From NCBI GenBank assembly GCA_052168235.1, contig JBQLZK010000015.1, forward strand, positions 32,001-96,000: a DNA stretch of 64,000 nucleotides, written 5' to 3'. Every line of letters starts with the position of its first letter. The first letter of the stretch is position 1. The position numbers and the translations under genes are program-made. A model generated the notes under the pieces. It was not told the origin of the DNA. It worked only from the letters and a program-made list of their open reading frames with translations, and searched no databases. This document shows positions 12,428-49,300 of the stretch, piece after piece. The stretch is from Thainema sp. (GTDB lineage: Bacteria > Cyanobacteriota > Cyanobacteriia > Phormidesmidales > Phormidesmidaceae).

Positions 12428-12781
12428 TTGGGTCAATTCCATGCTGTGGTTAAACGAAACAATCGGATTCCGGTTCGGGTCACGCCGGACGAAAAGGCAA
12501 CCATTCAATCCAGTGCCAGTGCGATCGGCACTAACGTATCTCGCATGTTGAGAGTATTGGGCCTGAAAGCAAAGGAACTTCATCAACTCATCGTACTGAT
12601 CAGACGGATTACAGCCCGGCTATTGCGACTCAAGTCGCTCAGCTACCGACGGCAAGTTAATCCAGACGAAATTCGATCGGCTGTTGATGGAGCACTGGAG
12701 CCTTTACATGCCATCGAAAAGTCTTTGCAATCCCCTCCTGGATCAGAGGCTCATGAAAAACGTAAATCAACTGAACCATGA
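12428..12781 (+). CDS. mobC: MobC-like relaxosome accessory protein (RHH); start may be GTG 12446
   Basis: KRNNRIPVRVTPDEKATIQSSASAIGTNVSRMLR ribbon-helix-helix pattern; ATGA overlap with the relaxase. Confidence 0.75.
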   Translation: MGQFHAVVKRNNRIPVRVTPDEKATIQSSASAIGTNVSRMLRVLGLKAKELHQLIVLIRRITARLLRLKSLSYRRQVNPDEIRSAVDGALEPLHAIEKSLQSPPGSEAHEKRKSTEP

Positions 12782-24459: not shown

Positions 24460-24463
24460 TTTG

Positions 24464-26267: not shown

Positions 26268-27356
26268 CTAGTCCTGTTCCTGCAGAGCCTCAATGAGTTC
26301 ATTCGCTAATGCCTGCAAGCGTTGAAACTTCTTCTTCAGCTTTGAATCTGCTTGAATACGATTCCATGCAGTCTTACTATAAAGCTGTTGAGCAGAGCGA
26401 CGAAACTCCTGTGGGGGATCTATATCAGCGCCACAACTATCATCAAAGTTAGCCTGCTTTAGCTCTTTAACACGCTCTAGTAGCGCACGTTTAGCCAGAC
26501 CCGCCTCGGCTTCTCGCAGCAAGTCAGCCTGAACGTCTGATGGCAAATTAGAGCGGCGAATCACATCTGCTTTAGAAAAAGCGACTCGCCCTTCTCGAAC
26601 CGCATCTAACAACTGCTCAGGCATCTTTTGCACAGCAATCAGTCGATTGGTCACGAAACTTTCCAGTGTTAGACCAAATTGGGTAAAGATTCGATCCAGT
26701 TGTGAGAGCACATCTAAGGTTATTATTCCGGAATAATAGTCACTCATTTCCTCGACAACTTGTTCATCATCCAGACGACGAGCGCGGCGCAGATTTTTAA
26801 TGCGAATCAGAGCCTGAGACAGGCTTTCGGTGTCTAGCTTAAACTTAAGGCCGATTAGCGCAATGATACTATCTGTCTCTTCAACAAGATTTAGGTTCTC
26901 GCGAATCAGGTTAGAGATCAGCGCAATTTCAAGTGCCTGTTCATCATTGAGGTCACTTTCAATCGCGGGTAATGTCTCTAACTTCAGGCTTTTACCACAT
27001 CGCCAGCGGCTTTCACCCGAGACGATTTCAAGCTTACCGTCCGCTCCACGTCGCACCAGCAACGGTTCTCTGACACCCACTTTGGCAATAGATCGTTGTA
27101 GCTTTTCAAGTGCAGCCGGATCAAAATATTTACGCGGCTGAGTTAACCCATCGCCCAGTCGGAGGGGAACAAAATCCTGAATGGGATAATGTGGAACTCC
27201 GCCTGCAGAGGAAGGAGCGTTTTGCAGATCTTCAAGCTGCTGTCGAAGCTGAGCGATCTCTTCATCACGCTGCTGAAGCTGCCCCATCTGGGCAACCCCG
27301 ACCTGTTGAAACTTTTGCAAAATTGGCTGCTGAGTTGCCTGACGTTTTTGTGCCAT
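26268..27356 (-). CDS. parB: ParB partition protein
   Basis: QPRKYFD, PLLVR, IVSGESRWR (GxRR-like), ALISNLIRENLN. Confidence 0.9.
   Translation of the reverse strand: MAQKRQATQQPILQKFQQVGVAQMGQLQQRDEEIAQLRQQLEDLQNAPSSAGGVPHYPIQDFVPLRLGDGLTQPRKYFDPAALEKLQRSIAKVGVREPLLVRRGADGKLEIVSGESRWRCGKSLKLETLPAIESDLNDEQALEIALISNLIRENLNLVEETDSIIALIGLKFKLDTESLSQALIRIKNLRRARRLDDEQVVEEMSDYYSGIITLDVLSQLDRIFTQFGLTLESFVTNRLIAVQKMPEQLLDAVREGRVAFSKADVIRRSNLPSDVQADLLREAEAGLAKRALLERVKELKQANFDDSCGADIDPPQEFRRSAQQLYSKTAWNRIQADSKLKKKFQRLQALANELIEALQEQD
26721..26738. other. parS-like palindrome, copy inside parB
   Basis: TATTATTCCGGAATAATA, perfect 18-bp palindrome identical to 28218-28235. Confidence 0.6.
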
Positions 27357-27373
27357 TGTCTTACCTATACGCT

Positions 27374-28195
27374 CTACCGCACAGCCATGAGGGCTTGGGC
27401 AATTTCTTTGAAGTTCTGATTTGCTTTATGGCTGGGTCGATGGGCCCGCAGGGGCAGCCCAGCAGCAGCGGCATTGCTCACTTCAGCAGAATCCTTGATG
27501 TAGTTAAAGCAATGCACTCCAATCTGGCTTAACAAAGCCGGTAAGGTAGGAAAGCCATCCTCAGTAGGCTTCTCAGTCAAACCTAAATTATCTCGATGTA
27601 ACGCTCGATCCTGGACTCGATTCGGGACAACACCCAGAATTCTGGGAGCCGGACGAAGCCTAAGTTTATCGGACTTTTCCATCACCCAAGCTAGCAATGT
27701 TGCCGCGCTCATCATGTCTTTGGAGTCGGGTTGAATGGGAATGACAACGAAGTTGGCAGCCGTAAGTGCCATTTTATGGGCTAGATCGATCGTTCCAGGA
27801 CAGTCAAAGATCAGATAATCATGGGGAAGGGGATAATCTTCCAACCGATCCTTCAAGATTTCCGTTTTTCGATCAGCCGTCGAAAGCCGTTCAATCAGCT
27901 CACTCAAGGATTCATCTCCCAGCAGAACTTGCATCCTATCTTTTTGCCAGCAGTTATAGAGAGGCCAATTTCCGTTAAAGTCATCTTCGAGAATGCAGTC
28001 AATTTTTTCATCTGGGCCTGGATTCTCGCCCCCCAAACCAACAAATGCCTTCAGTGATGCGTTGGGGTCAAGTCCGAATAGGCAGACCGAGAAACCTGCC
28101 AAAAAAAGTTCGTAGCCAACATTGACCGCAAGAGTGGTTTTACCTGACCCTCCAGCGTTACTCATCAAAGCGACTCGGATCTGATTTTCATTCAT
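27374..28195 (-). CDS. parA: ParA partition ATPase
   Basis: SNAGGSGKTT, LDPNASL, IFDCPG; directly upstream of parB. Confidence 0.9.
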   Translation of the reverse strand: MNENQIRVALMSNAGGSGKTTLAVNVGYELFLAGFSVCLFGLDPNASLKAFVGLGGENPGPDEKIDCILEDDFNGNWPLYNCWQKDRMQVLLGDESLSELIERLSTADRKTEILKDRLEDYPLPHDYLIFDCPGTIDLAHKMALTAANFVVIPIQPDSKDMMSAATLLAWVMEKSDKLRLRPAPRILGVVPNRVQDRALHRDNLGLTEKPTEDGFPTLPALLSQIGVHCFNYIKDSAEVSNAAAAGLPLRAHRPSHKANQNFKEIAQALMAVR

Positions 28196-30592: not shown

Positions 30593-32812
30593 TCACAACT
30601 GATACTCGGAAATGTTGGCGTTGATGCGCCAGTCTAGCAGCGTATATCGCTGGCGATCGCGCACCTGTCCGACTGCGATCGCAACCGCTTTCTTGGGGCC
30701 AACAATAATCGCTAACTGCTTGGCGCGGGTGAGTCCGGTATAGAGCAGATTACGGGTCAGCATCAGGTAGTGCTGCGTAAACAGCGGCAGAATCACCACC
30801 GGATATTCACTGCCTTGCGACTTATGAATCGTGACCGCCCAGGCTAGGGTCAGTTCATTCAAATCGGCTGCGTCATAGGTGACCCACCGCTGGTCGTACT
30901 GCACCGTCACTGCCTGCTCCTCGGCATCAATCTCGGCGACGGTACCTAAGTCGCCATTGAAGACATCTCGCTCATAGTCATTCAACTGCTGCAACACCCG
31001 ATCGCCCACCCGCAGGATTTGACTGCCGCGATTCAGCTCTGCGGCTTGGGGATGGGCCGGATTCAACCAGGTTTGCAGCACCTGATTAAGATTACGAGTG
31101 CCCATCGTTCCCCGGCGGGAGGGACAGAGGACTTGCACATCGCGGACGGGATTGAAGCCTAAGGTTGGAATCAGTTCCTGGATTAGGTCTTTCATGCCTT
31201 GAATACCTGGTTCCGGTTCCGGTGCTCCGAGCCAGAGGCAGTCGCTACGCGGTCGGGGAGAGACTGATTCCAGCTGAGGAAAGTCGCCGTGGTTAATTCG
31301 GTGGGCATTGACGACAATCTGACTGGCCTGAGCTTGCCGAAACACCTGCGTCAGTCGCACCACGGGAATGCAGCCGGAGTCGATCAGGTCGCGCAGCACG
31401 TTACCGGGGCCAACGCTGGGCAACTGGTCAATATCGCCCACCAGCAGTAAGTGCGCCTGGGTCGGAATCGCTTTGAGCAGGGCATTGGCCAAAAACAGAT
31501 CCAGCATGGAGGCTTCATCAATCACGACGGCATCGGTATCTAAGGGGTTGGCTTCATGTCGCTGGAAGCTCAGGTGGCTGGGATCAAATTCCAAGAGGCG
31601 GTGAATGGTTTTAGCCTCTTTGCCCGTCATCTCACTCAGGCGCTGGGCCGCTCGACCGGTGGGAGCCGCCAGCAGTAGGCGTTTTCCCATCGCGTGCCAG
31701 AGGGCAACGATGGTGCGGGTGGTAAAGGTCTTACCGCAGCCGGGGCCGCCAGTCAGAATCAGCACCCGTTGGCTAGCGGCCATTTCCACGGCTTGCTGTT
31801 GTTCGAGGGAGAGCGGCAGACCCGTGGTGTCAATCACACGCTGAATCCAGCGCTGGACACGGGCTACATCGACTGCTACAGGGTGCGAGAGGAGCAGTTG
31901 CACCTGCTGGGCTAGGTGTTGCTCGGCGGCGTAGAAGGCGGGTTTGTAGCAGCAGGCTTGCTCATCGTGATGATGCAGGATCAGCTCTTGTTCGCTGGCC
32001 ATCTGCTCAATCAGCGGGTCTAGGACTTCGGGATGGGGCTGATGATCCTCAATCGTGAGCCGCTTCATCGCTGTCTGCACCAGTTCTGTTCTGGGCAGAT
32101 AGCAGTGGCCTTGATCAGCGGCTTCACTCAGGACATGAACCAGTCCGGCCCGGTAGCGGAATTCGGAGTTGGGGGCAATGCCCAGGTTACGGGCAATCGC
32201 ATCGGCGGTGACAAAGCCAATGCCGTAGACATCGGTGGCGAGACGATAGGGGTTATGGGTAACAACGGCGATGGCATCGTTGCCGTAGGTTTTATAGATT
32301 TTGACGGCATAGGTGGTGGAGACACCATGACCTTGCAGGAACAGCATCACCTCTTTAATCGCCTGCTGTTCGATCCAAGCAGCTTGAATTAGCTCAATCC
32401 GTTTGCGCGCGATACCGGGCACTTCAATCAGTCGCTCGATATCCTGTTCAATCACATCCAGCGTTTCTAGGCCAAAGTGATTGACGATGCGACGAGCGGT
32501 GACGGGGCCAACGCCTTTGATTAAGCCGCTGCCGAGGTACTTTTCAATACCGGTCAGAGTGGCGGGTTTGGTTTCCTGGTAGTGCTTGACTTGAAATTGG
32601 CTGCCGTATTTGGGATGTTCTCGCCAGAAGCCGAACAGCTTGAGGGTTTGGCCGGGTTCGATATGGGCAAAGGTGCCGACAATGGTAATCAGCTCCGGTT
32701 CGCTGGTGACGTTGAGGCGAGCGACGGTATAGCCGGTATCATCGGCATGGAAGGTGAGGCGTTCGACAACGCCATGCAGATGAATTAGGGCGGGCAGATC
32801 GGCAGCAGTCAT
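30593..32812 (-). CDS. recD2: RecD2-like SF1B helicase
   Basis: YLGSGLIKGVG, HhH region, GGPGCGKT, APTGRAA, IDEASM, VGDIDQLPSVG, TIHKSQGSE, LYTGLTRAK. Confidence 0.95.
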   Translation of the reverse strand: MTAADLPALIHLHGVVERLTFHADDTGYTVARLNVTSEPELITIVGTFAHIEPGQTLKLFGFWREHPKYGSQFQVKHYQETKPATLTGIEKYLGSGLIKGVGPVTARRIVNHFGLETLDVIEQDIERLIEVPGIARKRIELIQAAWIEQQAIKEVMLFLQGHGVSTTYAVKIYKTYGNDAIAVVTHNPYRLATDVYGIGFVTADAIARNLGIAPNSEFRYRAGLVHVLSEAADQGHCYLPRTELVQTAMKRLTIEDHQPHPEVLDPLIEQMASEQELILHHHDEQACCYKPAFYAAEQHLAQQVQLLLSHPVAVDVARVQRWIQRVIDTTGLPLSLEQQQAVEMAASQRVLILTGGPGCGKTFTTRTIVALWHAMGKRLLLAAPTGRAAQRLSEMTGKEAKTIHRLLEFDPSHLSFQRHEANPLDTDAVVIDEASMLDLFLANALLKAIPTQAHLLLVGDIDQLPSVGPGNVLRDLIDSGCIPVVRLTQVFRQAQASQIVVNAHRINHGDFPQLESVSPRPRSDCLWLGAPEPEPGIQGMKDLIQELIPTLGFNPVRDVQVLCPSRRGTMGTRNLNQVLQTWLNPAHPQAAELNRGSQILRVGDRVLQQLNDYERDVFNGDLGTVAEIDAEEQAVTVQYDQRWVTYDAADLNELTLAWAVTIHKSQGSEYPVVILPLFTQHYLMLTRNLLYTGLTRAKQLAIIVGPKKAVAIAVGQVRDRQRYTLLDWRINANISEYQL

Positions 32813-33237: not shown

Positions 33238-34665
33238 TTAATTCCCTTCTGTATTCAGATTAACCATGCTCTGCTGTACAGCAGCAAGAATTTGCTGTAA
33301 ATCCGCTTCAGTATGGACAGTCGAGAGAAACCCGCCACCACCCCGCAGTAAGATGCCTTGATGGAGCAAGTGATAATAAATCAAATCCGGCTGAGGGACG
33401 GTGAGCGAGCCGCTGAAAATCCGAGGTGCTTCTGTCGCAACTGGGCCAAATAGAGAACCAAAATGAGCCATTCGTATCGGGATATTCTCGGCTGCAAAAT
33501 AGGTATTCAGTTGCTTAACAAATTGAGCTGTTTTTTGATTCAGGCGTTCTTGTAGCGCTGGACCTTCATCAATGAGCCGCTGTAGCACAGCATGAGCGGC
33601 AGCCATTGCGAGGGGGTGTTTGCAGAAGGTACCTGCAAAAAAGGTAGGCTGGACAGTAGGAGCAGAGGCATCACCATAGTTCCACCTGCCACCATCAATC
33701 TGATCGAGATATCGGGCTTGACCTGCGATCGCACCAATGGGCAATCCACCACCGATAATTTTTCCGTACGTGGCTAAATCTGCTTGTACGTCAAACCAGG
33801 CTTGTGCACCACCGGGATGAATCCGAAATCCGGTGATCATCTCATCAAAAATTAGGACAATGTCAGCATCACGAGTGATTTGGCGCAAATCGCGCAGAAA
33901 ATCGGTGGGCTGGAGGTTAGGCCGAAATGTTTGCACGGGCACGACCAGAACTGCTGCCAGTTCTGAAGCCTGAGCCTGAATCTGTTCTAGAGCTTGAGGA
34001 CTGCCGTAGTCCAAAACTAGTACATCTTGCACCATGTTGGTCGGAGTACCAGGTGAGATCGCAACGGTCTGAGGTTGACCATCAACAGTTTGCTGTTGCG
34101 CAAGGGTGCCGTCAAAGTGACCATGATACGAACCCGAAAAGAGGGCAATTTTCGAGCGACCTGTGGCAGCCCGAGCTAAACGAATCGCGGTCATGACAGC
34201 TTCAGTTCCGGTATTGCTGAAGGCGACGCGCTCCATACCAGTCAATTGAGTGATGGCAGTGGCAACGGCTCCAGCCAGCTCAGTTTGCGGCCCAAGCTGA
34301 ATACCGCGATCCAGCTGTTCCATCAGAGCAGCTTTAATAAAGGGTGGATTGTGACCAAATAAGTTAACTCCCATACCCATCGTCACATCGATATATTCGT
34401 TTCCGTCAATGTCCCAAATCCGCGAACCTTGAGATCGCCCAGCCACAATGGGATAGGCCATTTCTTTAGTGAGCAAGTTAAAGCCCGATACTGCTCGCTG
34501 ATCGGCCAGAACGGGACGATAGGTTTCTGCCCAAGCTTTGGAGCGGCGAGTTCGCTGGGTGTAGTCGGCGATCAGCGCCTCAAGGTGTTGGCGCTGTTGC
34601 GGAGACAGTGCTTCAGCCGCTGAGGAGGGGATGAGCTGGGGAGAAGAAAGAGGTGTTGTAGACAT
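33238..34665 (-). CDS. class III PLP aminotransferase resembling PKS/NRPS AMT domains
   Basis: WDIDGNEYID, SNTGTEA, SYHG, LIFDEMITGFR, TYGKIIGGG; ATG 34665 preferred over the track start. Confidence 0.9.
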   Translation of the reverse strand: MSTTPLSSPQLIPSSAAEALSPQQRQHLEALIADYTQRTRRSKAWAETYRPVLADQRAVSGFNLLTKEMAYPIVAGRSQGSRIWDIDGNEYIDVTMGMGVNLFGHNPPFIKAALMEQLDRGIQLGPQTELAGAVATAITQLTGMERVAFSNTGTEAVMTAIRLARAATGRSKIALFSGSYHGHFDGTLAQQQTVDGQPQTVAISPGTPTNMVQDVLVLDYGSPQALEQIQAQASELAAVLVVPVQTFRPNLQPTDFLRDLRQITRDADIVLIFDEMITGFRIHPGGAQAWFDVQADLATYGKIIGGGLPIGAIAGQARYLDQIDGGRWNYGDASAPTVQPTFFAGTFCKHPLAMAAAHAVLQRLIDEGPALQERLNQKTAQFVKQLNTYFAAENIPIRMAHFGSLFGPVATEAPRIFSGSLTVPQPDLIYYHLLHQGILLRGGGGFLSTVHTEADLQQILAAVQQSMVNLNTEGN

Positions 34666-34733
34666 AGAATTTGTTGGATAAAGGGCGAGTTGTAGGAGAG
34701 ACGAATAGCGACTCGTCCTCACATGAAAATTTC

Positions 34734-37700
34734 CTAGACTGTTTGAGGCAAGTTAAAGAAGCCGCTGCGACTGAAATAGGTAAGATAGCGCTGCAACAGT
34801 GGCGGATCGATTGCCGGACAAGTGATTGCGCTGTCCATTAGTTCTGTGCAGGTCTTCTGACAGTCGAACTGCCGATCGTCAGCATCGAGCGACTGGGCAA
34901 CCGTGGCTGCTGTTGCTGAGTTCATGGCATTATCTACGGAAGTATCTGCAAACAGAATCATCAATGGATAGAGAGGATGATCCTGCACTCGATCATCGAG
35001 CGTTTTCAGGTGTGATTGCCACTGCTCGGTCAGGGTATGTTGCCACTGCTCATATGAAACAAGTCGTAGGGGATAGCTAAGTGCCTGAATCTGCTGCACT
35101 AAGCTGCACCAAGAGATCGAGCGGGGGTTGCACAGATGGAATGCCTGCCCCCAAGTGGTTGAACGTTGAGAAAGATGCACAATCGCCTGACTGATGTAGT
35201 CCACTGGCGTCATATCGACTTGGGTTTCAACTGCCGGAGCACAGCCCAAGTAGAGACAACCCCGCAACATCAGCGATAAGCGATCGCGCGTATTGCAAAT
35301 GCCCGTCTGCTGATGACCCAGAATGCGTCCGGGTCGATAAACAGCGACGGGAACACCGCGATCGCAAGCCGTCCAAAGTAAGTTTTCCGCAACCCATTTA
35401 CTGCGGGCATAGCCGCCAAGCGGGGGTGGCACTTGGGAAAGATTAGTCTCTTCGGTAATTGCACCTGCCGCAGAATCCAATCCCGAAAAGACGCTGAGGG
35501 TGGAAACATAGGCAATTGGTTTGAGTTTGACTTGAGTTGCCAACCTGAGCAATGCTTGCGTTCCGAGTACATTGGCGGCTCGCACAGCGGTGTAGGGATA
35601 AGCTAAATTGACCGATGCTCCATTGTGATAAATGCGATCAACTTGATAGGCTAACGCTTGAAATTCTGCCTCGGTCAAACCTAAGTTAGGCTGCGATAAA
35701 TCTCCCACCACAGGCGTGATCCGGTCGGCATAATCGTCTCGCCATAGCTGGTAGTGATGAAGATGCTGCCGAAGCCGCTGTTGAGCGCTGTCGTAATCTG
35801 CTGCTCGGATTAGACAGTGAATGTGAGCTGATGTTTGCTGAAGTAGCTCGTGCAGCAGAAACGCTCCCAGGAATCCGGTAGCGCCTGTCAGCAGCACATG
35901 TTCAGGTTGGGCTGACGGTTCAATTAAATCGGGGGTTGGTTGAATCGTGGTATCTAACTGGAGGTCTTGATGCAGCAGATCATCACGCTGTTTGAAATCG
36001 CACTGTAATGTTCTACTTTGGCACTGATTAATCCGCGCTCTCAGTGCTGCAATAAAGGCTTGCGCCAGAGTGGCAATAGTTTGTTCGTGATGTTGATGGC
36101 GGCTGTACGTCCATTCAACATAGAGCTTGCCGTCAGCAACCAGTCCCACCACTTCAATGAGGTGTGTTCGATGATTATGGGAACTGCGCGTCCGCCCTTG
36201 CGATTCTTCAGCGGGTTTGAACAGCTTGGACTGGGTAAAGACCTGATCAAACTGTCCCAAATAGTTGAACTTTATCTGAGGTTGCGGCAGTTGCATAATC
36301 GGTTGCTCAGCAGCCAAATAGCGTAGGGCACCATAGCCAATGCCGCGATTGGGGATGTGCTGGAACTGCGTTTTGATGGTCTCTAAAGCTGCTTGCCAAG
36401 TAGCGATTTGCAGCGGTAAACAGACTGGATAAACCGACGTAAACCAGCCCAACGTGCGAGACAGATCGACCGATGAGAACAATGGTTCTCGCCCGTGGCC
36501 TTCCAAGTCTACCAATACTGTAGGCTGATTGATCCAGGGCTGAAACGCTTGTGCTAGAGCCGTTAGCAGCACTTCATTAATATGAGCCTGATCGGCTTGA
36601 GGAACAGTCTGGAGTAGAACTTGAGTTTCCGCCGCTGTGAGTTCAACGGTAAACGTCTGAGTCGATGCGATCGCAGTTTGTTCCTCGGTCACATCCACTG
36701 GAATTGCCGTTACTCCAGCCTGTAAATTGGATTGCCAAATTGCTAATTCCTGCTGGAGTTCGGACGACTGAGCATACTGCTGAAGCTGGTTTGCCCACTC
36801 TTGAAACGAAGTAGTTTTGGCAGGAAGCTGAGCGACTTGCCCCTGACTCAGCTGCCTATAAACCGTCTGAAAGTCCTCCAGCAGAATCCGCCACGACACC
36901 CCATCAATCACTAGATGGTGAACGATAATCAGCAACCGCTGCGGTTGATCTGCACCGAGATTAAACAGCGCGACTCTCACTAAATCGCCAGAATCAAGAT
37001 TGAGATTACCTTGTAAGCGATTGGCATGAGATTCAATGACAGCCGCCTGTTCAGCACCGGGGCAATCAGCCAAGTCAATGACTTCTAGAACTGGATGAAC
37101 CCTTGAAGTGGGCAAAATTTCCTGCTGCCATCCGGATTCGGTGTGGACAAAGCGCGATCGCAAATTATCATGATGCTCGATTAAATGCTCAATTGTCTGC
37201 TCTAAGAGTCCTGAGTCTAATGTTTGACGGCACTCTAGCAGCACGGCCTGATTCCAGTGATGCGGCTGAGCAAACTCCTGCTCAAAGAACCAACGTTGAA
37301 TTGGTGTCAGCGGCACGATTCCAGTTACGTCTCCCTGTTCCGCTTGTGCTTGGCTCTCAGTCCCCGCTACAGATGCTAATCCTGCAATAGTCTGATGTTC
37401 GAACAGTTGCTTCGGCGTGAGACTCAGCCCAGCTTGATTGGCTTTGGCAATCACTTGAATGCTGAGAATTGAGTCACCACCGAGACTGAAGAAGTTGTCA
37501 TGAATGCCAACCTGCTCCAGTCCTAATACGTCTGCCCAGATTTGCGCTAGTACTTGCTCAGCTTGAGTTGTAGGTGGAGCGTAGGATGACTGAGACTGCA
37601 AAGTTTCTGGCACTGGTAGCACTTGCCGATCTACTTTGCCATTGGGTGTGAGCGGTAGTGCATCAAGAACTGCGATCGCACTTGGCACCATATAATCTGG

Positions 37701-40496
37701 TAACCGCTGGGCAAGATAGTCCTGAAGCGCTTGTGTGTCCTGAGTAGAATTGTTGACAACTACATAGGCGACCAGTCGCTTTTGCCCTGGTTGGTCTTCT
37801 CTTAGTACAACAACTGCACGCTGAACGACTGGATGTTGTTGGAGAACCGATTCAACTTCCCCTAACTCAATCCGATAGCCGCGTAGCTTCACCTGATCGT
37901 CCATGCGTCCTCGGAACTCAATCGTTCCATCCGCTCGATATACAGCGCGGTCACCTGTTTTGTATAGACGTGAGGCGTGAGGCGTGAGGCGTGAGGCGTC
38001 TAATGGATTGGGAAGGAAGCGTTCGGTGGTCAGGTCAGGTCGATACCAGTAGCCGCGAGCAACCGTTGCACCGCCGATGTAGAGTTCTCCCGGTACTCCA
38101 ATCGGCACAGGCTGCTGCTGTTGATCCAAGATATACACCTGGCTATAGGCCAAAGGTTGACCCAGGGGAACAATACCGGACTCCTCGATTGAATTAATCT
38201 CGTAGGCTAAAACACCGACAGTGGCTTCAGTGGGGCCATAGTGATTGAGAATGCGGCAGTTGGATAACTCACGGATATTCCTAATCAATTCCCAATGTGC
38301 CGCTTCACCACCCAGGATGAGGCACTGTTTCGGCAGCACTTGAGCCGGATGAGCAGCGGATGAGATCAAAGCTTGCAGATGAGAGGGAACGATCTTCAAG
38401 CAATCAATTTGATGCTGCTGGTTATAGGCCGCCAGGGCATCGGGATTAGAAGCTCGCTCTGTGCTAATCAGATGCAAACAGCCACCCGTACAAAGGGCTG
38501 AAAAGATAGCTGTATTACCCAGGTCAGCCGCAATGGTAGATACAGAAGCGTAGCTGGCTGATGATGAGAGATTCAGCCGCTTTTGAATACCATCGAGATA
38601 GTTCAGCACATGCCGATGCTCGACGGCAACACCCTTGGGTTGTCCGGTCGAACCAGATGTGTAGATCAGATACGCCAGATGCTCCGGTTGAATTGAACTG
38701 TTAGGGTTTTCGGTGCTGTAACGTGCGATCTCACTCCAGTCTCGATCCAGACAAACCACCTGAGCCGTCGTCTCTGGTAGCGTGTCGAGTAAGGACGATT
38801 GCGTCACAATCACAGGCGCTTGAGCATCATTTAGCCGCTGCATAATTCCTGCTGATGGGAGAGCCGGATCAAGCGGTAGATAAGCTCCTCCAGCTTTGAG
38901 GATACCCAGCAGACCTACCATGAGGTTGCAGGAGCGCTCTAGATAAAGTACGACAGGTGTATCGGCAGTGACGCCCTGCTGCTGGAGGCAGTGAGCCAGT
39001 TGGTTAGCCTGTTGATTCAGTTGAGCATAGCTGAGGTGCTGGTTTTCGTAGACAACGGCTAGCGCATCTGGAAATTGAGCGGCTTGAGCTTCAAAGTGCT
39101 GATGGATAAAGCCTTCTAGGATTTGTTCAGAAATAGAGGGATTGAACTCGACTAGTACCCGATGTCGCTCGGCAGCGCTCAGGATCTCCAACTCATCAAT
39201 GGGACGATCTGGATCTGCGATCGCACTTGCTAAAAGAGTTTGATACTGGCTGGCTAAACGCTCAATCGCATCTGCCGCTAGGCAATTCGCATCATAATTA
39301 AACTCACAGGTGAGACCATTAGCTTGGTGGTGGCACACTAAATGCACCTGATAGCGCTCGATGCAGACCCAGGACTGTTGGAGGCTAAATGTGGGACCTG
39401 ATGCACTCTGAGCCAACGAGGTTTGCCGATAGTCAAACCCAAACGGGAAGAACGAAGGCTCAGGGTTCGGCTGCCAACCATCCCAGGTGAAGTAGTCCTG
39501 CCACTGAGCTACCGTCTCCAGTTGCGCTCTGACCTGCTGCCAAGCCTGATTGAACGAATGCTCTGGCTTCAGCGAAATGTGAATGGGCAGGTATCGGGTC
39601 AAAAGACCGACCGCTGTTTCGAGATCATCATAGTGACGCCCATCAAACGCGGTTCCTACGACTAACTCATATTTTCCAGAGAGCCGTCCAAGCAGAATCT
39701 GCCAAGCCGTCAGCAGAAAGCTTCGCAAATTAGCGTGTCCAGCACTAGCTTTAAGCGATTGAACCAAATCACTAGATAACTGGATCGAAACGGATTTAGG
39801 AAAGAAGGAAGAAATGGCCAAGTGCGATCGCAGATCCCAAGGTAAACGTACTGTCAAAGCATCACCTGGGATTACCTGATGCCAATAGTTTCGACCGCTA
39901 GCAGTTTCTTCTGACTCCAAAAGTTCATGCTGCCATTCCGCCAAATCTGCATATTGAATTGGCTCATCTCCTGATGCTTCCTTGTCGATAGCGTCATAAT
40001 GGCGACTCAGTTCTTGAACCAATTGCTGAACAGTGGCAGCATCCGCACATAGGCCAGCCAACTTGAGGAGCAATGAGGATTCTTGGCTCGACTGACGAAT
40101 GAGGATAGCTTGCAGTGGTGCTTGCGAGTTCGAGCTGCTGGTGCGGTATAAATTCTGCCAGTACTGTTCAATAGCGGCTGTTTGTGCCGCTGGTTCTAGC
40201 ACTTGTAGATCATGACACGAAAACCAATCAGGCTCCGCTGTTGGAGATAGTGGATTGTCAATTATTTGCAGCGGAATCGTCATGCCCGGTAAGCACTGAA
40301 AACTCGTCCGCAGGATTTCATGGCGGTTGATTACCTGACGCAAAGCGTTAATAAGCTTAGCCTGATCCAGATGGCCATTTAGATGAACTAGGGCTTGAAC
40401 GTGATAGGGGGCCGCTGGATCAGCTTGTTGGAGACACCACAGGCGCTCTTGCTGGGGGGATAGCCGATATCCCTCAATCGTTTGGGGTTGCATCAT
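34734..40496 (-). CDS. terminal NRPS: interface(C*)-A(Asp)-PCP-E-R
   Basis: C-like domain lacks HHxxxDG (AGLCADA). A code read as DLTKIGHVGK. PCP GGDS, E domain HHLVIDGVSW, reductase LLTGATGFLG and YARSK. Start 40496 or 40493. Confidence 0.9.
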   Translation of the reverse strand: MMQPQTIEGYRLSPQQERLWCLQQADPAAPYHVQALVHLNGHLDQAKLINALRQVINRHEILRTSFQCLPGMTIPLQIIDNPLSPTAEPDWFSCHDLQVLEPAAQTAAIEQYWQNLYRTSSSNSQAPLQAILIRQSSQESSLLLKLAGLCADAATVQQLVQELSRHYDAIDKEASGDEPIQYADLAEWQHELLESEETASGRNYWHQVIPGDALTVRLPWDLRSHLAISSFFPKSVSIQLSSDLVQSLKASAGHANLRSFLLTAWQILLGRLSGKYELVVGTAFDGRHYDDLETAVGLLTRYLPIHISLKPEHSFNQAWQQVRAQLETVAQWQDYFTWDGWQPNPEPSFFPFGFDYRQTSLAQSASGPTFSLQQSWVCIERYQVHLVCHHQANGLTCEFNYDANCLAADAIERLASQYQTLLASAIADPDRPIDELEILSAAERHRVLVEFNPSISEQILEGFIHQHFEAQAAQFPDALAVVYENQHLSYAQLNQQANQLAHCLQQQGVTADTPVVLYLERSCNLMVGLLGILKAGGAYLPLDPALPSAGIMQRLNDAQAPVIVTQSSLLDTLPETTAQVVCLDRDWSEIARYSTENPNSSIQPEHLAYLIYTSGSTGQPKGVAVEHRHVLNYLDGIQKRLNLSSSASYASVSTIAADLGNTAIFSALCTGGCLHLISTERASNPDALAAYNQQHQIDCLKIVPSHLQALISSAAHPAQVLPKQCLILGGEAAHWELIRNIRELSNCRILNHYGPTEATVGVLAYEINSIEESGIVPLGQPLAYSQVYILDQQQQPVPIGVPGELYIGGATVARGYWYRPDLTTERFLPNPLDASRLTPHASRLYKTGDRAVYRADGTIEFRGRMDDQVKLRGYRIELGEVESVLQQHPVVQRAVVVLREDQPGQKRLVAYVVVNNSTQDTQALQDYLAQRLPDYMVPSAIAVLDALPLTPNGKVDRQVLPVPETLQSQSSYAPPTTQAEQVLAQIWADVLGLEQVGIHDNFFSLGGDSILSIQVIAKANQAGLSLTPKQLFEHQTIAGLASVAGTESQAQAEQGDVTGIVPLTPIQRWFFEQEFAQPHHWNQAVLLECRQTLDSGLLEQTIEHLIEHHDNLRSRFVHTESGWQQEILPTSRVHPVLEVIDLADCPGAEQAAVIESHANRLQGNLNLDSGDLVRVALFNLGADQPQRLLIIVHHLVIDGVSWRILLEDFQTVYRQLSQGQVAQLPAKTTSFQEWANQLQQYAQSSELQQELAIWQSNLQAGVTAIPVDVTEEQTAIASTQTFTVELTAAETQVLLQTVPQADQAHINEVLLTALAQAFQPWINQPTVLVDLEGHGREPLFSSVDLSRTLGWFTSVYPVCLPLQIATWQAALETIKTQFQHIPNRGIGYGALRYLAAEQPIMQLPQPQIKFNYLGQFDQVFTQSKLFKPAEESQGRTRSSHNHRTHLIEVVGLVADGKLYVEWTYSRHQHHEQTIATLAQAFIAALRARINQCQSRTLQCDFKQRDDLLHQDLQLDTTIQPTPDLIEPSAQPEHVLLTGATGFLGAFLLHELLQQTSAHIHCLIRAADYDSAQQRLRQHLHHYQLWRDDYADRITPVVGDLSQPNLGLTEAEFQALAYQVDRIYHNGASVNLAYPYTAVRAANVLGTQALLRLATQVKLKPIAYVSTLSVFSGLDSAAGAITEETNLSQVPPPLGGYARSKWVAENLLWTACDRGVPVAVYRPGRILGHQQTGICNTRDRLSLMLRGCLYLGCAPAVETQVDMTPVDYISQAIVHLSQRSTTWGQAFHLCNPRSISWCSLVQQIQALSYPLRLVSYEQWQHTLTEQWQSHLKTLDDRVQDHPLYPLMILFADTSVDNAMNSATAATVAQSLDADDRQFDCQKTCTELMDSAITCPAIDPPLLQRYLTYFSRSGFFNLPQTV

Positions 40497-40536
40497 GACG
40501 GTTTTCGTGTCTACGTTTGTTTGTAGGATTTCAGTC

Positions 40537-41574
40537 CTATGAAAGGGGTGAAACGGGTTCTGCCATGCCGACCAGTACTGTGCGATTACCCTGAAAAGGG
40601 TCACGTCCGTGGGCTGCCAGCATGTTGTCCAGCAGCAGAATGTCCCCGGCTTGCCAGGGAAAACGAATGGTCTCGGCGGCGTAGGCTTGCCGAATGGCAT
40701 CCAGAACGGTCGGTTCAATCTCCGAGCCGTCGCCATAGTAGGCATTGCGGGGTAAGACATCCCCCGACCGCAAAACCGCTTGAACAGAGGGTTTCAGGCT
40801 AGAAATATGGAATAAATGAGCCTGATTAAACCAGACCGCTTCTCCCGTTTCAGGATGGGTTGCGATCGCTTGGCAGACTTGGCGAGTGGTCAAGCGATCA
40901 TCCTGCCACTCCCATTCAATTTGAGCCTCCCGACAGTAGGCTTCGACTTGTACCTTATCCTGCGTCTGAAAGACCTGCTGCCAGGATAGATCCAGCCCAT
41001 CACCGTAGTTGCGGACGTACATGATCTGCCGTTCTTGTAAGCGATCGCGCAGCACAGGATTGAGTCGCTGGAATACACGGCGACTATCGGCAATCGGCGT
41101 AATTCCACCGGATGCGGCAGGCTGCACGCAGAAAAACGCAATTTTCATCGGCCAGTTGCGGCTATAGGCCATTTCATTGTGCAGGGGAATGGATTGATCG
41201 GCAGGATATTCTGTTGACGTGTAGATCTGGCCTTGCACCTGAGTTCGGGGAGTTGAGCCGTAGGAGTAGGTCAGCAATGGTCCCCCGATCGTTTGTATAA
41301 ACTGCTCAAATTCTGTGGCTCCTTTAACCTGAAAGTTGCGAAACAGAAGGCCACCCACCTGTCGGAGATGCTGGGAAATTAAATCCCGGTGGTTCCCTGC
41401 CCAAGTGACAAAGTTGAGTTCTGCGATCGCAGGTTGGATAACCAGCGGCAAAGGCTGATTCGGAGCAAGAGAATCGATTCGCACTAAATCGCTTTGGGTT
41501 AGGCTCATTGCCTTACGGCGCACAGCACCTAGCCGAGGTCTTGTAGGCGGAGTAGAGAAATCAGAGCGGGTCAT
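40537..41574 (-). CDS. stand-alone TauD/SyrP-like Fe(II)/2OG dioxygenase, probable Asp beta-hydroxylase
   Basis: LLFRNF, YTSTEYP, HNEMAY, WFNQAHLFH, DNMLAAHGR. Confidence 0.88.
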   Translation of the reverse strand: MTRSDFSTPPTRPRLGAVRRKAMSLTQSDLVRIDSLAPNQPLPLVIQPAIAELNFVTWAGNHRDLISQHLRQVGGLLFRNFQVKGATEFEQFIQTIGGPLLTYSYGSTPRTQVQGQIYTSTEYPADQSIPLHNEMAYSRNWPMKIAFFCVQPAASGGITPIADSRRVFQRLNPVLRDRLQERQIMYVRNYGDGLDLSWQQVFQTQDKVQVEAYCREAQIEWEWQDDRLTTRQVCQAIATHPETGEAVWFNQAHLFHISSLKPSVQAVLRSGDVLPRNAYYGDGSEIEPTVLDAIRQAYAAETIRFPWQAGDILLLDNMLAAHGRDPFQGNRTVLVGMAEPVSPLS

Positions 41575-41597: not shown

Positions 41598-44500
41598 TTA
41601 TCCCCGTAGGGTCTTGCGTCGGGTCTGCTTCAATCGTTGTAAACCCGTCGATTGCAGCGCCTGGGCTTGCTGCTGCTGTTGCTGACAATGGTGTTCAGCC
41701 ACCTGAGCTAAAGTCTCTGCCAGAGGTAAATCTGGGTTTCGGGCCAGCTTCTCCAGCAAGATCATGAAAGTGTTGGATAGGCGTTGAGTTGTTGCAGCCT
41801 CAAACAAATCGGCCTTGTAGTTCCAGAATCCAGCAATGCCCTCCGAGCCTTCCCAGAGGTTCAGCTTTAAGTCATAGCGAGCCGTGCCGTGATCGACCTC
41901 AACCGATGAAAGGGTCAGACCGGGCAGCTCCAGATCTGGTGCGGGAGCATTTTGCAGCACAAACCAGACCTGAAATAGAGGATTATGGCTCAAGGTGCGC
42001 TCCAGCTTTAGCTCATCAACTAGGCGCTCAACGGGCAAATCGGGATGAGCATAGGCTCCGAGAGTCGTTTCTCGCACCTGGCGCAGCAGCTCCCGGAAGC
42101 TCATCGTGCCCGACAGTTGAGATCGCAAGACCAGCGTATTCACAAAGAAGCCAATTAAGCCTTCCAGTTCAGCTTGGTTGCGATTGGCAATGGGCGACCC
42201 GACTAGAATATCCTCGGCCTGCGTGTAGTAATGCAGCAAGACATTGAATCCAGCCAGCAGTGTCATAAACAGTGTTGCCGATTCCTGATGGCTCAGGTCA
42301 GTGAGTGCCTGACTGAGTGCTGCGGTGAGTTGAATCGGCTGCTGGGCACCTCGAAAAGTTTGTACTAAAGGACGAGGGCGATCCGTCGGTAGCAGGAGAA
42401 CGGTTGGCGCACCCTCAAGCTGGTGCAGCCAGTAGTCCAACTGTTTAGGTAGCCAATCGTCAGCCGTCTGCTGTTGCCACGCTGCAAAGTCAGCATACTG
42501 AACCGTCAATGGCGGCAGAGCGGGAGTTTGATGCTGAATTAACGCTTGATACAGACTCGCCAACTCTTCAATCAGAACGCCCATTGACCACCCGTCCGAG
42601 ACAATATGGTGCATCGTCAACAGGACAATATGCTCCGTTTCCGCTAGCTTGAGGACTGTAATCCGGAATAACGGCCCCTGCTTGAGGTCAAAGGATTGCC
42701 GAACCTCCTTCAGACAAATTGCCTCGGCCTCAGACGTGCGATCGCAGTGATCCGACAAATCAATCACCGTGAGGGGAAGTTCTAGCTTGGGGGCAACTAC
42801 TTGAACAGGCTGTCCCTCAACCTGATCAAACGTGGTGCGGAGAGTTTCATGCCGCTGCACGAGTCGCTGAAAGCTCTCTTTCAGTGCGGGCAGGTTAAGG
42901 TTCCCGGTTAGTCGTACGGCTGCCGGAATATTGTAGAACGCGCTGCCAGGTTCCAGTTGATCGAGTACCCAAAGTCGTCGCTGGGCAAAGGAAACGGGAA
43001 ACGGTTGCCCAGTGCGAGGAACAGGTTGAATCGCAGCTTGAACGGATGGAGCGCTTGTCTCCTGAAGCTGAAATTCAATCACAGCCGCTAGTGCAGCAAC
43101 TGTCGGAGCCTCAAATAAACAGCGCATGGGTAACTCAATTTGACAGGTCTTGCGAATGCGAGTTACAGCCTGGGCCGCGAGTAGGGAATGACCACCAACC
43201 TCAAAAAAGTTGTCATGCAGACCAATAGACTCTAAACCCAGAAGCTGCGACCAAATCTCAGCTAAATACTTCTCCACCTGGGTTTGAGGGGCTGAGCTAA
43301 CCCCTGACCGTTCTGATTGCTCTGACTGAGACAACACCTCTGATGGAGCAGGCAGTGCGTTGCGATCGAGCTTGCCATTTAGGGTCAATGGCAGCGCCTC
43401 CAGCAGAACAAACGCGGACGGCACCATGTAGTCAGGCAACTGACGACGCAGCAGGGTTCGCAGTTCGGCTGGCAGGTTGTTATATGGTTCACGCGGCACG
43501 ACATAGGCAACTAGGCGCTGATCGCCGGGTTGATCTTCGCGTACCAAAACACTGGCCTCTTGAAGATTGGGATGCTGTCTTAAGACGGCTTCGATTTCAC
43601 CGAGTTCAATCCGGAACCCTCGAAGTTTGACCTGCTGATCAATGCGACCGAGGTATTCAAGTTCACCGTTGGGGCAGTAGCGGACGAAGTCGCCTGTTTT
43701 GTAGAGGAGTGAGGAGTGAGGAGTGAGGGGTGAATGGGTGGATGGGTGGATGGGTGGATGGGTGAATGGGTGGATGGGTGAATGGGTTGGGGATGAAGCG
43801 TTCGGTGGTGAGAGTGGGGTGGTTGAGGTAGCCGCGTGCAACGCCTGCGCCACCGATATAGAGTTCACCGGGTACGCCGACGGGGACGGGCTGCTGATTG
43901 GTGTCTAGCACGTAGAGCTGTAGGTCAGGAATGGCTTGACCAATTAGGCTTCCGGCTGCGGCATGAATGTCCGCTTGGCTAATGGGGCGATAGGTGACAT
44001 GCACGGTTGTCTCGGTGATGCCGTACATATTAATCAACTGTGGCGACTGATCGCCGTGGCGATCGCACCAGGGTTTGAGGCTGGCTAAATCGAGGGCTTC
44101 TCCGCCAAAAATGACGTACCGCAGTTTCAAGCAATCGGCATGAGTGCTAGCGATATCGGCTTGAATGAACTGCCGAAAGGCGGAGGGTGTCTGATTTAGA
44201 ACCGTCACTCCTTCTTGGCAAACCCACTGATGAAATGTCTGGGGATCACGGCTGAGGCAGTAGGGCACAATTAATAAGCGACCGCCATAGAGTAGAGCAC
44301 CCCAGATTTCCCATACGGAAAAGTCGAACGCAAAGGAGTGAAAGAGCGCCCACACATCGCGATCGCAAAATTGGAACCATTGATCCGTTGCCGTAAATAA
44401 GCGGGTCACATTACCGTGCGTGACCATTACTCCCTTGGGTTTGCCCGTCGAGCCAGAAGTATAGATCACATAGGCTAGGCTTTCGGGAGTCGCTTGGCTC

Positions 44501-46336: not shown

Positions 46337-49300
46337 CTAGTCATCTCCAATAGCAGCCATAATGTCATTCAGGTCGTCTTGGTTCCAGTTGCTCCACTGA
46401 AACTCGGCAAAGTCAGACGGGGTAAAATGTTTCGTCGCTGGCTCCTGGCTGCTCTGAATCAGCGATCGCAGCGCCACTAAAAAGTGTTGCGCCAGGGCCT
46501 CAATCGTTGCTGCATCGTGTAAATTCTGGCTATACAGCCATTCCAGCCGCAGACTACCCTCAGTGACATAGCCAATGATTTCTAAAATATGACTGCGATG
46601 CCCGAAAGGACTACGGGTTGCTCCGTAGGATTCTGCCGCAGTCACAAATTCAGCAGTGGCGTTCATTCCCGGATCGAATTGCCCTAAATAGTTAAACTTC
46701 ACCTGCGGTCGGGGTAGGGACTGAAGTTGTGCGATCGCAGATTGATTACTGCCGTAACGCAACAGTCCATAGCCAATACCAGAATTGAGAATCTGCCGTA
46801 GTTGCTCTTTCACCTGCGGTCGGGCTAATCCGGATTCTGCTGAATCGACCGTCAGACAAACTGGATAGACTACTGTAAACCAGCCGACCGTTCGCGAGAG
46901 ATTCACACCTGGAAAGAGATCTTCCCGTCCATGTCCTTCCAGATCAATCAGAATTGAAGACCGCCCGATCCAGCGCTGAAAACTCTGTGCCAAGGCCGTT
47001 AGCAGCACATCATTGATGTGGGTATTGTAAGCAGTTGGCACATCCTGAAGCAGAGTTTGGGTTTCTGACGGTGAGAGTTCAACCAGCACTGTTTGAGTCG
47101 AGGCCACCGTGTTAGGCTGGCCTTCGCGATCCACAGGAATTTGAGGAGTAGCCTGAGTGAGAAGAAATTGCCATCTCTCAACCTCTGCCTGCCCGTCCAA
47201 CGACTGAGCGTATTGTTGAAGCTGGTTTGCCCACTCTTGAAAGGAAGTGGTTTTGGCAGGAAGCTGAACTCTCTGACCCTGACTAAATTGCCCATAGACG
47301 GTCTGAAAGTCCTCCAGCAGAATCCGCCACGACACCCCATCAATCACCAGATGATGCACAATGATCAGCAATCGTTGTGGTTGGTCAGCACCTAAATCAA
47401 ACAATGCAACTCGCACGAGATCACCAGAACCGAGATCCAAACTTTCTTGCAAGCAATTAGCATGAGATTCAAGCACAGCCGCCTGTTCAGCACGGGGGCA
47501 GTCAGCTAAGTCAATGACTTCTAGAATTGGACGAACCCTTGAAGTCGGTAAGATATCCTGTTGCCATCCCGATTTGGTGTGGACAAAGTGCGATCGCAAC
47601 TGATCATGATGCTCGATTAAATGCTCGATGGTTTGCTTTAAGAATCCTGCATCCAACATTTGGCGGCATTCCAGCAGTACCGCTTGATTCCAGTGATGCG
47701 GCTGAGCAAACTCCTGCTCAAAGAACCAGCGCTGAATCGGCGTCAGTGGCACGCTGCCCGTTACCTCTCCTTGCTCAGCTTGTACTTGACTCTCGGTTCC
47801 CGCTACCGCCGCTAATCCGACAATGGTCTGATGTTCAAATAGCTGCTTTGGCGTCAGATGTAATCCGGCTTGATTCGCTTTGGCAATCACCTGAATGCTG
47901 AGAATCGAATCACCACCGAGACTGAAAAAGTTGTCATGAATGCCAACTTGCTCAAGGCCCAATACGTCTGCCCAGATTTGCGTCAAGATTTGCTCAGATT
48001 GAGTTGTCGGTGGAGTGTAGGATACCTGAGATTGAATCATCTCCGGTACTGGCAGCGCATGTCGATCCACTTTGCCATTGGGCGTGAGCGGGAGTGCGTC
48101 AAGAACTGCGATCGCACTTGGCACCATATAGTCCGGAAACCGCTGGGCAAGATAGTCCTGGAGCGCTTGAGTGTCCTGAGTACAATTGTTCACAACTACA
48201 TAGGCGACCAGTCGCTTTTGTCCCGGTTGATCTTCCCTTAGTACAACAACAGCACGCTGGACGGCTGGATGTTGCTGGAGAACCGATTCAACTTCCCCTA
48301 ACTCAATCCGATAACCGCGTAGCTTCACCTGATCGTCCACGCGTCCTCGGAACTCAATTGTTCCATCGGCTCGGTATATAGCGCGATCGCCTGTTTTGTA
48401 GAGGCGTGAGGCGTGAGGAAGTGGATGGGTAGATGAGTGGATGGGTGGATGGGTGGTTGAGGAATTGAAAGGATGGGTGGATGGGTTAGCAAAAAGATTG
48501 AGGATAAAGCGTTCGGTAGTGAGGTCAGGGCGTTGCCAGTAGCCGCGAGCGACGGTTGCGCCGCCGATATAGAGTTCTCCCGGCACTTCAATTGGTACAA
48601 GCTGCTGCTGTTGATCCAGGATATAAACCTGACTATGGGCCAGCGGTTGACCTAGAGGAACGATGCCTTCATGGGCTATCTCATCAATTTCATAGGTCAA
48701 GACACCGACAGTGGCTTCAGTGGGGCCATAGTGATTAAGAATGCGGCAGTTGGATAACTCACGGATATTCCTAATCAGCTCCCAACTAGCCGCTTCTCCA
48801 CCCAGGATGAGGCACTGTTTCGGCAGGATATCCGCAGGATGAGCAGCAGAGGTAATCAGAACCTGAAGATGGGATGGAACGATCTTTAGGCAATCAATTT
48901 GATATTGCTGGTTGTAAGCTGCCAGGGCATCGGGATTAGAGGCTCGCTCTGCGCTAATCAGATGCAAACAGCCACCTGTGCAGAGTGCTGAAAAGATCGC
49001 TGTGTTACCCAAATCCGCCGCAATGGTAGATACAGAGGCGTAGCTGGCTCCTGGTGAAAGATTCAGCCGCTGTTGAATGCCATCGAGATAGTTCAGCACA
49101 TGCCGATGCTCGACGGCGACACCTTTCGGTACTCCGGTCGAGCCAGAGGTGTAGATCAGATAGGCTAGGTTGTCAGGCTTAACGGAGCTATGAGGGTTTT
49201 CGGTGCTGTAATGTGAGATCGCACTCCAGTCTCGATCCAGACAAACCACCTGAGCTGTCGTCTCTGGTAGCGTGTTGAGTAAGGACGATTGCGTCACAAT

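Follow-up and report, generated by a model that had tools for sequence, protein, structure and literature searches.

A tandem-repeat array at a frame break in the threonine module of a cyanochelin-type gene cluster of Thainema sp.

The subject here is a split gene in Thainema sp. (Cyanobacteriota), found in a stretch of 64,000 nucleotides (the window; G000:C15:32001-96000) of a 7.54-Mb draft genome in 205 contigs. The gene encodes the predicted threonine (Thr) module of a nonribosomal peptide synthetase (NRPS), and it belongs to a predicted siderophore-type cluster of NRPS and polyketide synthase (PKS) genes. Its adenylation (A) domain carries, between motifs A6 and A7, a loop built from 7- and 8-nt tandem repeats, and there the reading frame breaks. 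An initial annotation, made from the sequence letters, had described a repeat-linked frame break at 43704-43787 and had read it as a phase-variable ON/OFF switch. The observation is confirmed; the switch is weighed below. The sister species (G001) is the sole other genome of the genus. Tandem arrays were called with Tandem Repeats Finder (TRF), with 30 dinucleotide shuffles of the window as the control. Positions are those of the window, and feature coordinates are collected in Table 1.

The repeat array and the split gene

The Thr loop begins just after the F codon of ERFIPNPF and ends just before the Y codon of YKTGD; the Leu codon of LYKTGD comes from its last 7-mer. Read on the plus strand, its units are the 8-mer GGGTGGAT (as given by TRF) and the 7-mer GAGGAGT. 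Repeat units occupy the whole distance between the two codons, 76 nt. Since 76 mod 3 = 1, the gene is split into two frames. TRF reports a period-7 array at 43704-43733 (unit GAGGAGT, 4.3 copies, score 53) together with a period-8 array that extends 8 nt into the PNPF codons. The window as a whole yields 20 TRF rows of period 7, 8, 14 or 16, against a mean of 2.6 rows in the shuffles, where the top score was 59. The longest perfect runs in the Thr array measure about 31 nt (3.9 copies of the 8-mer) and about 25 nt (3.6 copies of the 7-mer).

On the minus strand, the upstream frame passes from ...GELYIGGAGVARGYLNHPTLTTERFIPNPF into a repeat-encoded peptide, continues through ...LLTPLQNRR LRPLLPQR, and ends at TGA 43663-43665. 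In the +1 frame relative to it lie LYKTGDFVRYCPNGELEYLGRIDQQVKLRGFRIEL and also LYKTGDFVRY..GRIDQQVKLRGFRIEL, which holds motifs A7 and A8. This downstream frame is open upstream as far as 43868, for the sole reason that the repeat contains no stops.

According to Pfam, the upstream open reading frame (ORF) encodes a condensation (C) domain and a full AMP-binding domain; the downstream frame encodes AMP-binding_C, PP-binding (the peptidyl carrier protein, PCP) and a second C domain. The A domain therefore has both its AMP-binding core and its AMP-binding_C part, but on two frames. The G001 ortholog is a single ORF of 1625 aa with a 61-residue insert, and has A6 and A7 in one frame. Both halves of the split gene align to it without a gap (863 of 863 and 702 of 702 codons).

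Most of what the initial annotation said about this anatomy stands. The two halves are otherwise intact, by Pfam domains and by the gapless alignment. The Thr insert has the longest 8-mer run of the five inserts of this kind in the cluster (7.5 copies, against 5.2, 4.0, 3.5 and none by TRF). By the arithmetic of the loop modulo 3, loss of one 7-mer or gain of one 8-mer gives an in-frame C-A-PCP-C protein; a change of -1 nt, +2 nt, -16 or +14 would serve equally. The upstream frame does end in a stop, 8 codons later than was written.

The assignment to threonine is a prediction from pocket residues. The motifs FDFSVWE and VIFGGE are found in the A domain, and D213, F214, W217, N256, G286, M312, V320 and H321 are invariant across 67 aligned relatives. 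Identity of the module to the A domains of PvdD is 58%. Over these residues the pocket appears to match the threonine type, whose code is DFWNIGMVHK.

Arrays in the A6-A7 loops and across the genome

More solid than any account of the break, and mildly novel, is the finding that each of the cluster's five amino-acid A domains has a translated array of 7- and 8-mers in its A6-A7 loop. The five loops measure 153, 177, 90, 76 and 36 nt, and four of them are in frame. Six complete loops were found in G001 (183, 36, 111, 93, 36 and 111 nt), all with a length of 0 mod 3, so that 10 of the 11 complete loops in the two genomes keep the frame. A seventh G001 loop is truncated, its contig ending within the insert. 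Unit numbers differ at nearly every orthologous loop, with the frame kept. Of the loops compared with their orthologs, the Thr loop has been rearranged most: a 110-nt head is absent, there are four additional 8-mers but four 7-mers fewer, and the junction unit is one C short. Because the two Thr loops differ by several changes, no single slip can be identified as the cause of the break.

Among 173 genomes of the family that were scanned, the junction of 7-mer and A7 codons occurs at 5 sites in G000, at 6 sites in G001 and in no other genome. The A domains outside the cluster in G000 have the usual A6-A7 spacing, 21-28 residues. Two finished Leptolyngbya plasmids (NIES-3755 and L. boryana) likewise have ordinary loops, with 20-27 residues from A6 to A7, where the present cluster has arrays. 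In metagenomic relatives of the Thr type, the distance from PNPF to LYKTGD is 12-42 nt with a mode of 21 nt, all in frame (tblastn; 79 of 80 measurable). In solved A domains, the insert site is a connection of 3-4 residues (LgrA 558->562). An AlphaFold model of the G001 ortholog A domain has a mean pLDDT of 86.3, and insert residues 407-448 fall below 50. On this model, the arrays would behave as tolerated, translated, disordered loop insertions.

The inserts have heads of two types, starting ANPSTHTFNSST... or ATxDSNLSAL... (48401-48490, 54090-54266 and 62229-62381; in G001, L021 and L023-L025). Non-orthologous modules share a head type, and orthologs differ: the G001 Thr insert has the second type, the G000 Thr insert neither. 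This pattern hints at possible gene conversion between modules. Elsewhere in the family, a genome of another genus (G012) has a different tandem-repeat composite in an A6-A7 loop (L019, G012:C8, about 1400-1560), made of AGAAGGC x3, CAAAATC x3 and a 16-mer x3, and in frame. The case suggests that the loop may be a recurrent tolerated site.

Across the whole genome, TRF gave 472 merged loci of period 7, 8, 14 or 16. The commonest units are ACCCATCC (46 arrays), AAAATCC (25), ACTCCTC (21) and ACGCCTC (14). Most loci (401 of 472) lie outside any long open frame. An array was counted as intragenic if one open frame spanned it with at least 60 codons on each side; 67 loci qualified, with the frame open throughout, at lengths of up to 180 nt (12 of them at least 84 nt). 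The remaining 4 of 472 are frameshift-like. Three of these are plain spacers between adjacent genes, which leaves the Thr array as the only gene-breaking array in the genome. Examples of in-frame intragenic arrays are C17:56222-56401, C36:7053-7176 and C11:19366-19502, and the C-rich strand is the coding strand in 49 of the 67. The genome is 50% G+C and holds 8,963 copies of GCGATCGC; such abundance is presumably the cyanobacterial HIP1 signature.

The same units thus recur at many loci, mostly outside genes, as in a dispersed class of short tandem repeats. Heptameric STRR sequences are an older example from cyanobacteria. Rickettsia palindromic elements are dispersed repeats that insert in frame into protein loops; here, by comparison, the inserts are tandem 7- and 8-mers in the A6-A7 loop, their length is still mutable, and one copy is out of frame. 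Also comparable are the G-rich heptamers of Nostoc and Xanthomonas (PMC4692102, as described in the accessible part of that paper): these also form abundant, dispersed tandem repeats of the 7-nt class, with strong G/C skew and variable copy number, mostly outside genes. The units here differ (GGGTGGAT, GAGGAGT, GAGGCGT, GTTGAGG) and include 8-mers, and 67 of the arrays are translated inside genes. The same part of that paper gives its heptamers as under-represented in coding regions and reports no NRPS case.

Origin and meaning of the frame break

The following history would account for these results. The genome carries tandem repeats of 7 and 8 nt as a dispersed family, and in the ancestor of the genus its arrays may have colonised one short surface loop, A6-A7, in all the A domains of a single cyanochelin-type, plasmid-like cluster. 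In the normal state, an array has no stop codon on the coding strand and would be translated as a disordered excursion rich in Pro, His, Ser and Thr, which the enzyme tolerates. Unit numbers would change fast, with selection holding the total at a multiple of three. In the present record the Thr array is 3n+1; translation would leave the frame before motif A7 and run on to a stop 13 codons beyond it. With the sequence as it stands, the assembly line would be interrupted partway through an A domain, and the organism would be a non-producer with intact uptake genes. The break would then have arisen recently and incidentally, when a mutable array changed in length, and the resulting loss-of-function allele might in principle revert by another slip. 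It would not be an evolved switch. The probability of this reading is put at roughly 0.46. It takes the frameshift to be present in the cells, to abolish production, and to be able to revert. These three steps are inferred, whereas the anatomy, the frame arithmetic, the in-frame relatives, the genome-wide family and the loop position are observed.

The chief competitor is an artefact of assembly or consensus. In that case the true loop is in frame, for example with one more 8-mer or one fewer 7-mer, and a draft metagenome assembly has miscounted units or joined two strain alleles. The initial annotation had itself allowed for an assembly error, and the indirect evidence points both ways. Several results tell against a real lesion. 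The draft is in 205 contigs, and the best-matching sequencing run is a metagenome (0.91 of words); a mixture of strains at a hypervariable array could yield a chimeric consensus. Six 31-mers and forty 21-mers of the array recur elsewhere in the genome. G001 contig C160 ends inside such an insert (L023, about 6895-6964), which implies that assemblers stumble at these arrays. Each of the 10 other complete loops keeps the frame, and no other lesion was found in the cluster. With G001 as the reference, the ratio of nonsynonymous to synonymous substitution (dN/dS) is 0.130 for the part downstream of the break and 0.171 for the part upstream, and neighbouring genes have values of 0.113-0.155. The downstream half is thus constrained like its neighbours, and the break is either very recent or not real. 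Nor did other DNA of the same species come to light: a 24-nt flank pattern had 0 matches among metagenome contigs, and exact look-up of the two half-proteins found none in the protein collection.

Other results argue that the length change is real. In the same assembly, all 67 other intragenic arrays are in frame, including the longer ones (12 of at least 84 nt), as are the four neighbouring loops of the cluster. The array is imperfect, and every k-mer of 41 or more across it is therefore unique in the assembly. Its length is below that of common short reads. Contig ends show just a weak excess of arrays (5 of 472 within 100 nt, against 2.6 expected). The broken loop is also the one most rearranged relative to its ortholog. 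On balance the break is judged somewhat likelier to be real than an artefact, although the artefact remains a serious contender that we would still bet against.

Chimeric joining of two separate loci through the repeat was considered and ruled out: both flanks are collinear with one G001 ORF. The G001 cluster is scattered over at least four contigs, and one contig ends in an insert; such arrays do fragment short-read assemblies. Exact look-up of the G001 ortholog also found none in the protein collection, and a scan of genome contigs turned up 14 loci, none of them from a further member of the genus. Another 18 of the 20 sequencing runs listed, 3 of them metatranscriptomes, share 0.05-0.19 of words; no run is used here to argue for a habitat, for expression or for particular alleles.

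A second question is whether a real break would be a switch. The initial annotation had proposed an evolved contingency locus, in which slipped-strand changes in unit number toggle siderophore production reversibly at high frequency, and which selection keeps as bet-hedging over a costly public good. Its arithmetic, its intact halves, its siderophore setting and its caveat about artefact hold; the evolved switch is not supported, the short tracts and the in-frame relatives arguing against it. The locus does resemble the simple-sequence-repeat (SSR) contingency loci whose general properties are reviewed in PMC3315296 (accessible part). The ORF contains a tandem repeat with units whose lengths are not divisible by three (6 x 8 + 4 x 7 = 76 nt), gain or loss of a single unit shifts or restores the frame, and the change is reversible in principle. 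Unit numbers also vary at nearly every orthologous loop between the two genomes, and the siderophore cluster has separate uptake genes, as a public-good scenario would have it.

The differences weigh more. The present array lies mid-gene in an enzyme loop, rather than close to the 5' end of a gene for a surface structure, with units of 7 and 8 nt and tracts that are short and imperfect. Perfect tracts reach only about 3.9 (8-mer) and 3.6 (7-mer) units, fewer than four in either case, and SSR mutability climbs steeply with length; coding sequences, moreover, generally suppress SSRs (both from the same part of PMC3315296). A recurrent switch should show repeated OFF states at its sister loci, but these are all ON: the frame is kept in 10 of the 11 complete loops and in every one of the 67 other intragenic arrays. 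The repeat family is chiefly intergenic (401 of 472 loci outside a long frame), which gives the arrays inside genes the look of a tolerated invasion. Polyploidy, common among cyanobacteria, would blunt recessive OFF alleles. The literature searched held no paper on repeat-driven switching of cyanobacterial NRPS genes or on tandem repeats in A-domain loops. An evolved switch is accordingly regarded as unlikely.

A related proposal, in which the frameshift is real and also length-polymorphic, is held to be just as doubtful. Slippage of 7- and 8-nt repeats in the loops of a plasmid-borne siderophore synthetase would give rise to a standing, interconverting mix of producers and receptor-keeping non-producers, the five loops acting as five independent mutable "fuses". 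If true, it would amount to a contingency locus in a cyanobacterial secondary-metabolite gene. A modest form of the original idea is possible, namely an OFF allele that is able to slip back; a break born of slippage is more revertible than an ordinary mutation.

The break might also be real and yet bypassed, through low-level +1 ribosomal slippage on the proline codons CCA-CCC-A(T/C) of the array, or through two halves that are made separately and reassemble. The shift required is indeed +1 (76 = 75+1), the upstream frame reads CCA CCC ATT and CCA CCC ATC within the array, and the downstream frame is open from 43868. Spontaneous +1 slippage, however, occurs at about a percent or less, and we know of no functional precedent for an A core that is split before motif A7. 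There is no conserved signal, and the ortholog and ten other loops are plainly in frame. Such proline codons are known +1-prone sites (PMC4519876 and PMC7577736, accessible parts), and slippage on them could give a trace of full-length protein. Bypass as the explanation is very improbable.

Two candidates connected with bypass were rejected. Programmed frameshifting left no sign: there is no conserved signal and the relatives are in frame. The other was a possible precedent, since the cyanochelin C paper (bioRxiv 10.64898/2026.07.24.740629, accessible part) lists one module as two ORFs, ccsH_1/2 and ccsH_2/2, in a producing Myxacorys strain. In three Myxacorys genomes (G189-G191), however, the A6-A8 matches are contiguous and without stops; the ccsH split is therefore not in the A6-A7 loop and sets no precedent.

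An incidental, revertible length change, the preferred reading, would have parallels among natural non-producers, such as Planktothrix with inactivated microcystin synthetase genes and the siderophore non-producers of Pseudomonas communities that keep their receptors. What they have in common is one lesion in an NRPS cluster that is whole in other respects, with uptake genes retained, which would allow use of a neighbour's siderophore. Their lesions are insertion elements, deletions and point mutations, whereas the candidate here is a change in tandem-repeat length. If the break is real, a natural change of this kind disables a public-good pathway and spares the uptake genes; such a lesion can by its nature revert, and producer/non-producer dynamics in biofilm cyanobacteria become testable. 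Independently of the break, the arrays would form a class of hypermutable sites able to break biosynthetic genes. The A6-A7 loop may be an insertion-tolerant site useful for NRPS engineering. For genome miners there is a caution: in a metagenome-assembled genome, a module that appears split at an array of this kind may be an artefact.

The cluster and its plasmid-like setting

Within the window, the cluster comprises an aminotransferase, C-A-PCP-C-R (R, reductase), TauD, the Thr module, an Asp module, C-A-PCP-C-TauD, a PKS with ketosynthase, acyltransferase, ketoreductase and acyl carrier protein domains (KS-AT-KR-ACP), and C-A-PCP. By Pfam it is an assembly line primed by a fatty acyl-AMP ligase (FAAL), with two TauD hydroxylases beside Asp-like A domains, a terminal reductase and a class-III aminotransferase. 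Divergent to it are genes for an AMIN-TonB receptor, a periplasmic binding protein, an MFS protein and a penicillin-amidase-type acylase. Apart from the Thr gene, the cluster and its uptake genes are intact.

Table 1. Positions of the repeat arrays, the split gene, the cluster and the adjoining module in the window
Feature	Position	Strand	Description
Composite tandem-repeat loop, Thr A domain	43704-43779	-	76 nt = six 8-mers + four 7-mers, 3n+1
TRF period-8 (period-16) array	43728-43787	-	Unit GGGTGGAT, 7.5 copies, 92% matches, score 99; period 16 score 113
Upstream ORF, 901 aa	43663-46368	-	Condensation domain and adenylation core to motif A6; out-of-frame repeat peptide, without motif A7
Downstream reading frame from LYKTGD (A7)	41598-43706	-	A-sub (AMP-binding_C), PCP, condensation domain
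In-frame repeat loop, last Asp-like A domain	37965-38000	-	36 nt; 7-mers, TRF unit CGTGAGG; same length in G001
In-frame repeat loop, Asp-like A domain	48401-48490	-	90 nt; TRF, loop measurement
In-frame repeat loop, A domain of C-A-PCP-C-TauD protein	54090-54266	-	177 nt; 7-mers GAGGCGT and GTTGAGG, 8-mers
In-frame repeat loop, first amino-acid A domain	62229-62381	-	153 nt; TRF, loop measurement
Predicted NRPS/PKS siderophore-type cluster within window	33238-63998	-	Pfam; runs past window to FAAL-ACP-C start and divergent uptake genes
MobA/VirD2 relaxase	12778-14946		Plasmid/conjugative module
TraG/TrwB coupling protein	24461-26263		Plasmid/conjugative module
ParB and ParA	26268-28195		Plasmid/conjugative module
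YhcG nuclease and RecD2-type helicase	30593-32812		Plasmid/conjugative module

This gene content resembles that of the cyanochelin-type clusters of Leptolyngbyaceae, which make a beta-hydroxy-aspartate lipopeptide (PMC12628792 and bioRxiv 10.64898/2026.07.24.740629, accessible parts). Shared features include the FAAL start, the hybrid NRPS/PKS line and the reductive end; two TauD-type hydroxylases with Asp-like A domains; a plasmid or mobile-element setting; and a divergent AMIN-TonB receptor, binding protein, MFS protein and Ntn-type acylase. Module order differs from that of cyanochelins B and C as described there. By gene content, then, the cluster matches the cyanochelin type and is a predicted siderophore NRPS/PKS cluster. 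Because it fits the published descriptions, the siderophore and public-good setting that the initial annotation assumed is reasonable.

The setting also appears plasmid-like. The cluster adjoins a plasmid/conjugative-element module at 12778-32812, and the cyanochelin B cluster is likewise plasmid-borne (PMC12628792, accessible part). At the other end of the biosynthetic order, the last NRPS (34734-40760) shows C-A-PCP, a second condensation domain and a reductase by Pfam, with one PP-binding match, and the class-III aminotransferase gene (33238-34722) comes after it. Beyond the window, the TonB-dependent receptor (L026:3901-6558; G000:C15:99901-102558) carries an N-terminal AMIN domain. AMIN-TonB receptors are the class named for cyanochelin uptake in the accessible part of 10.64898/2026.07.30.741596.

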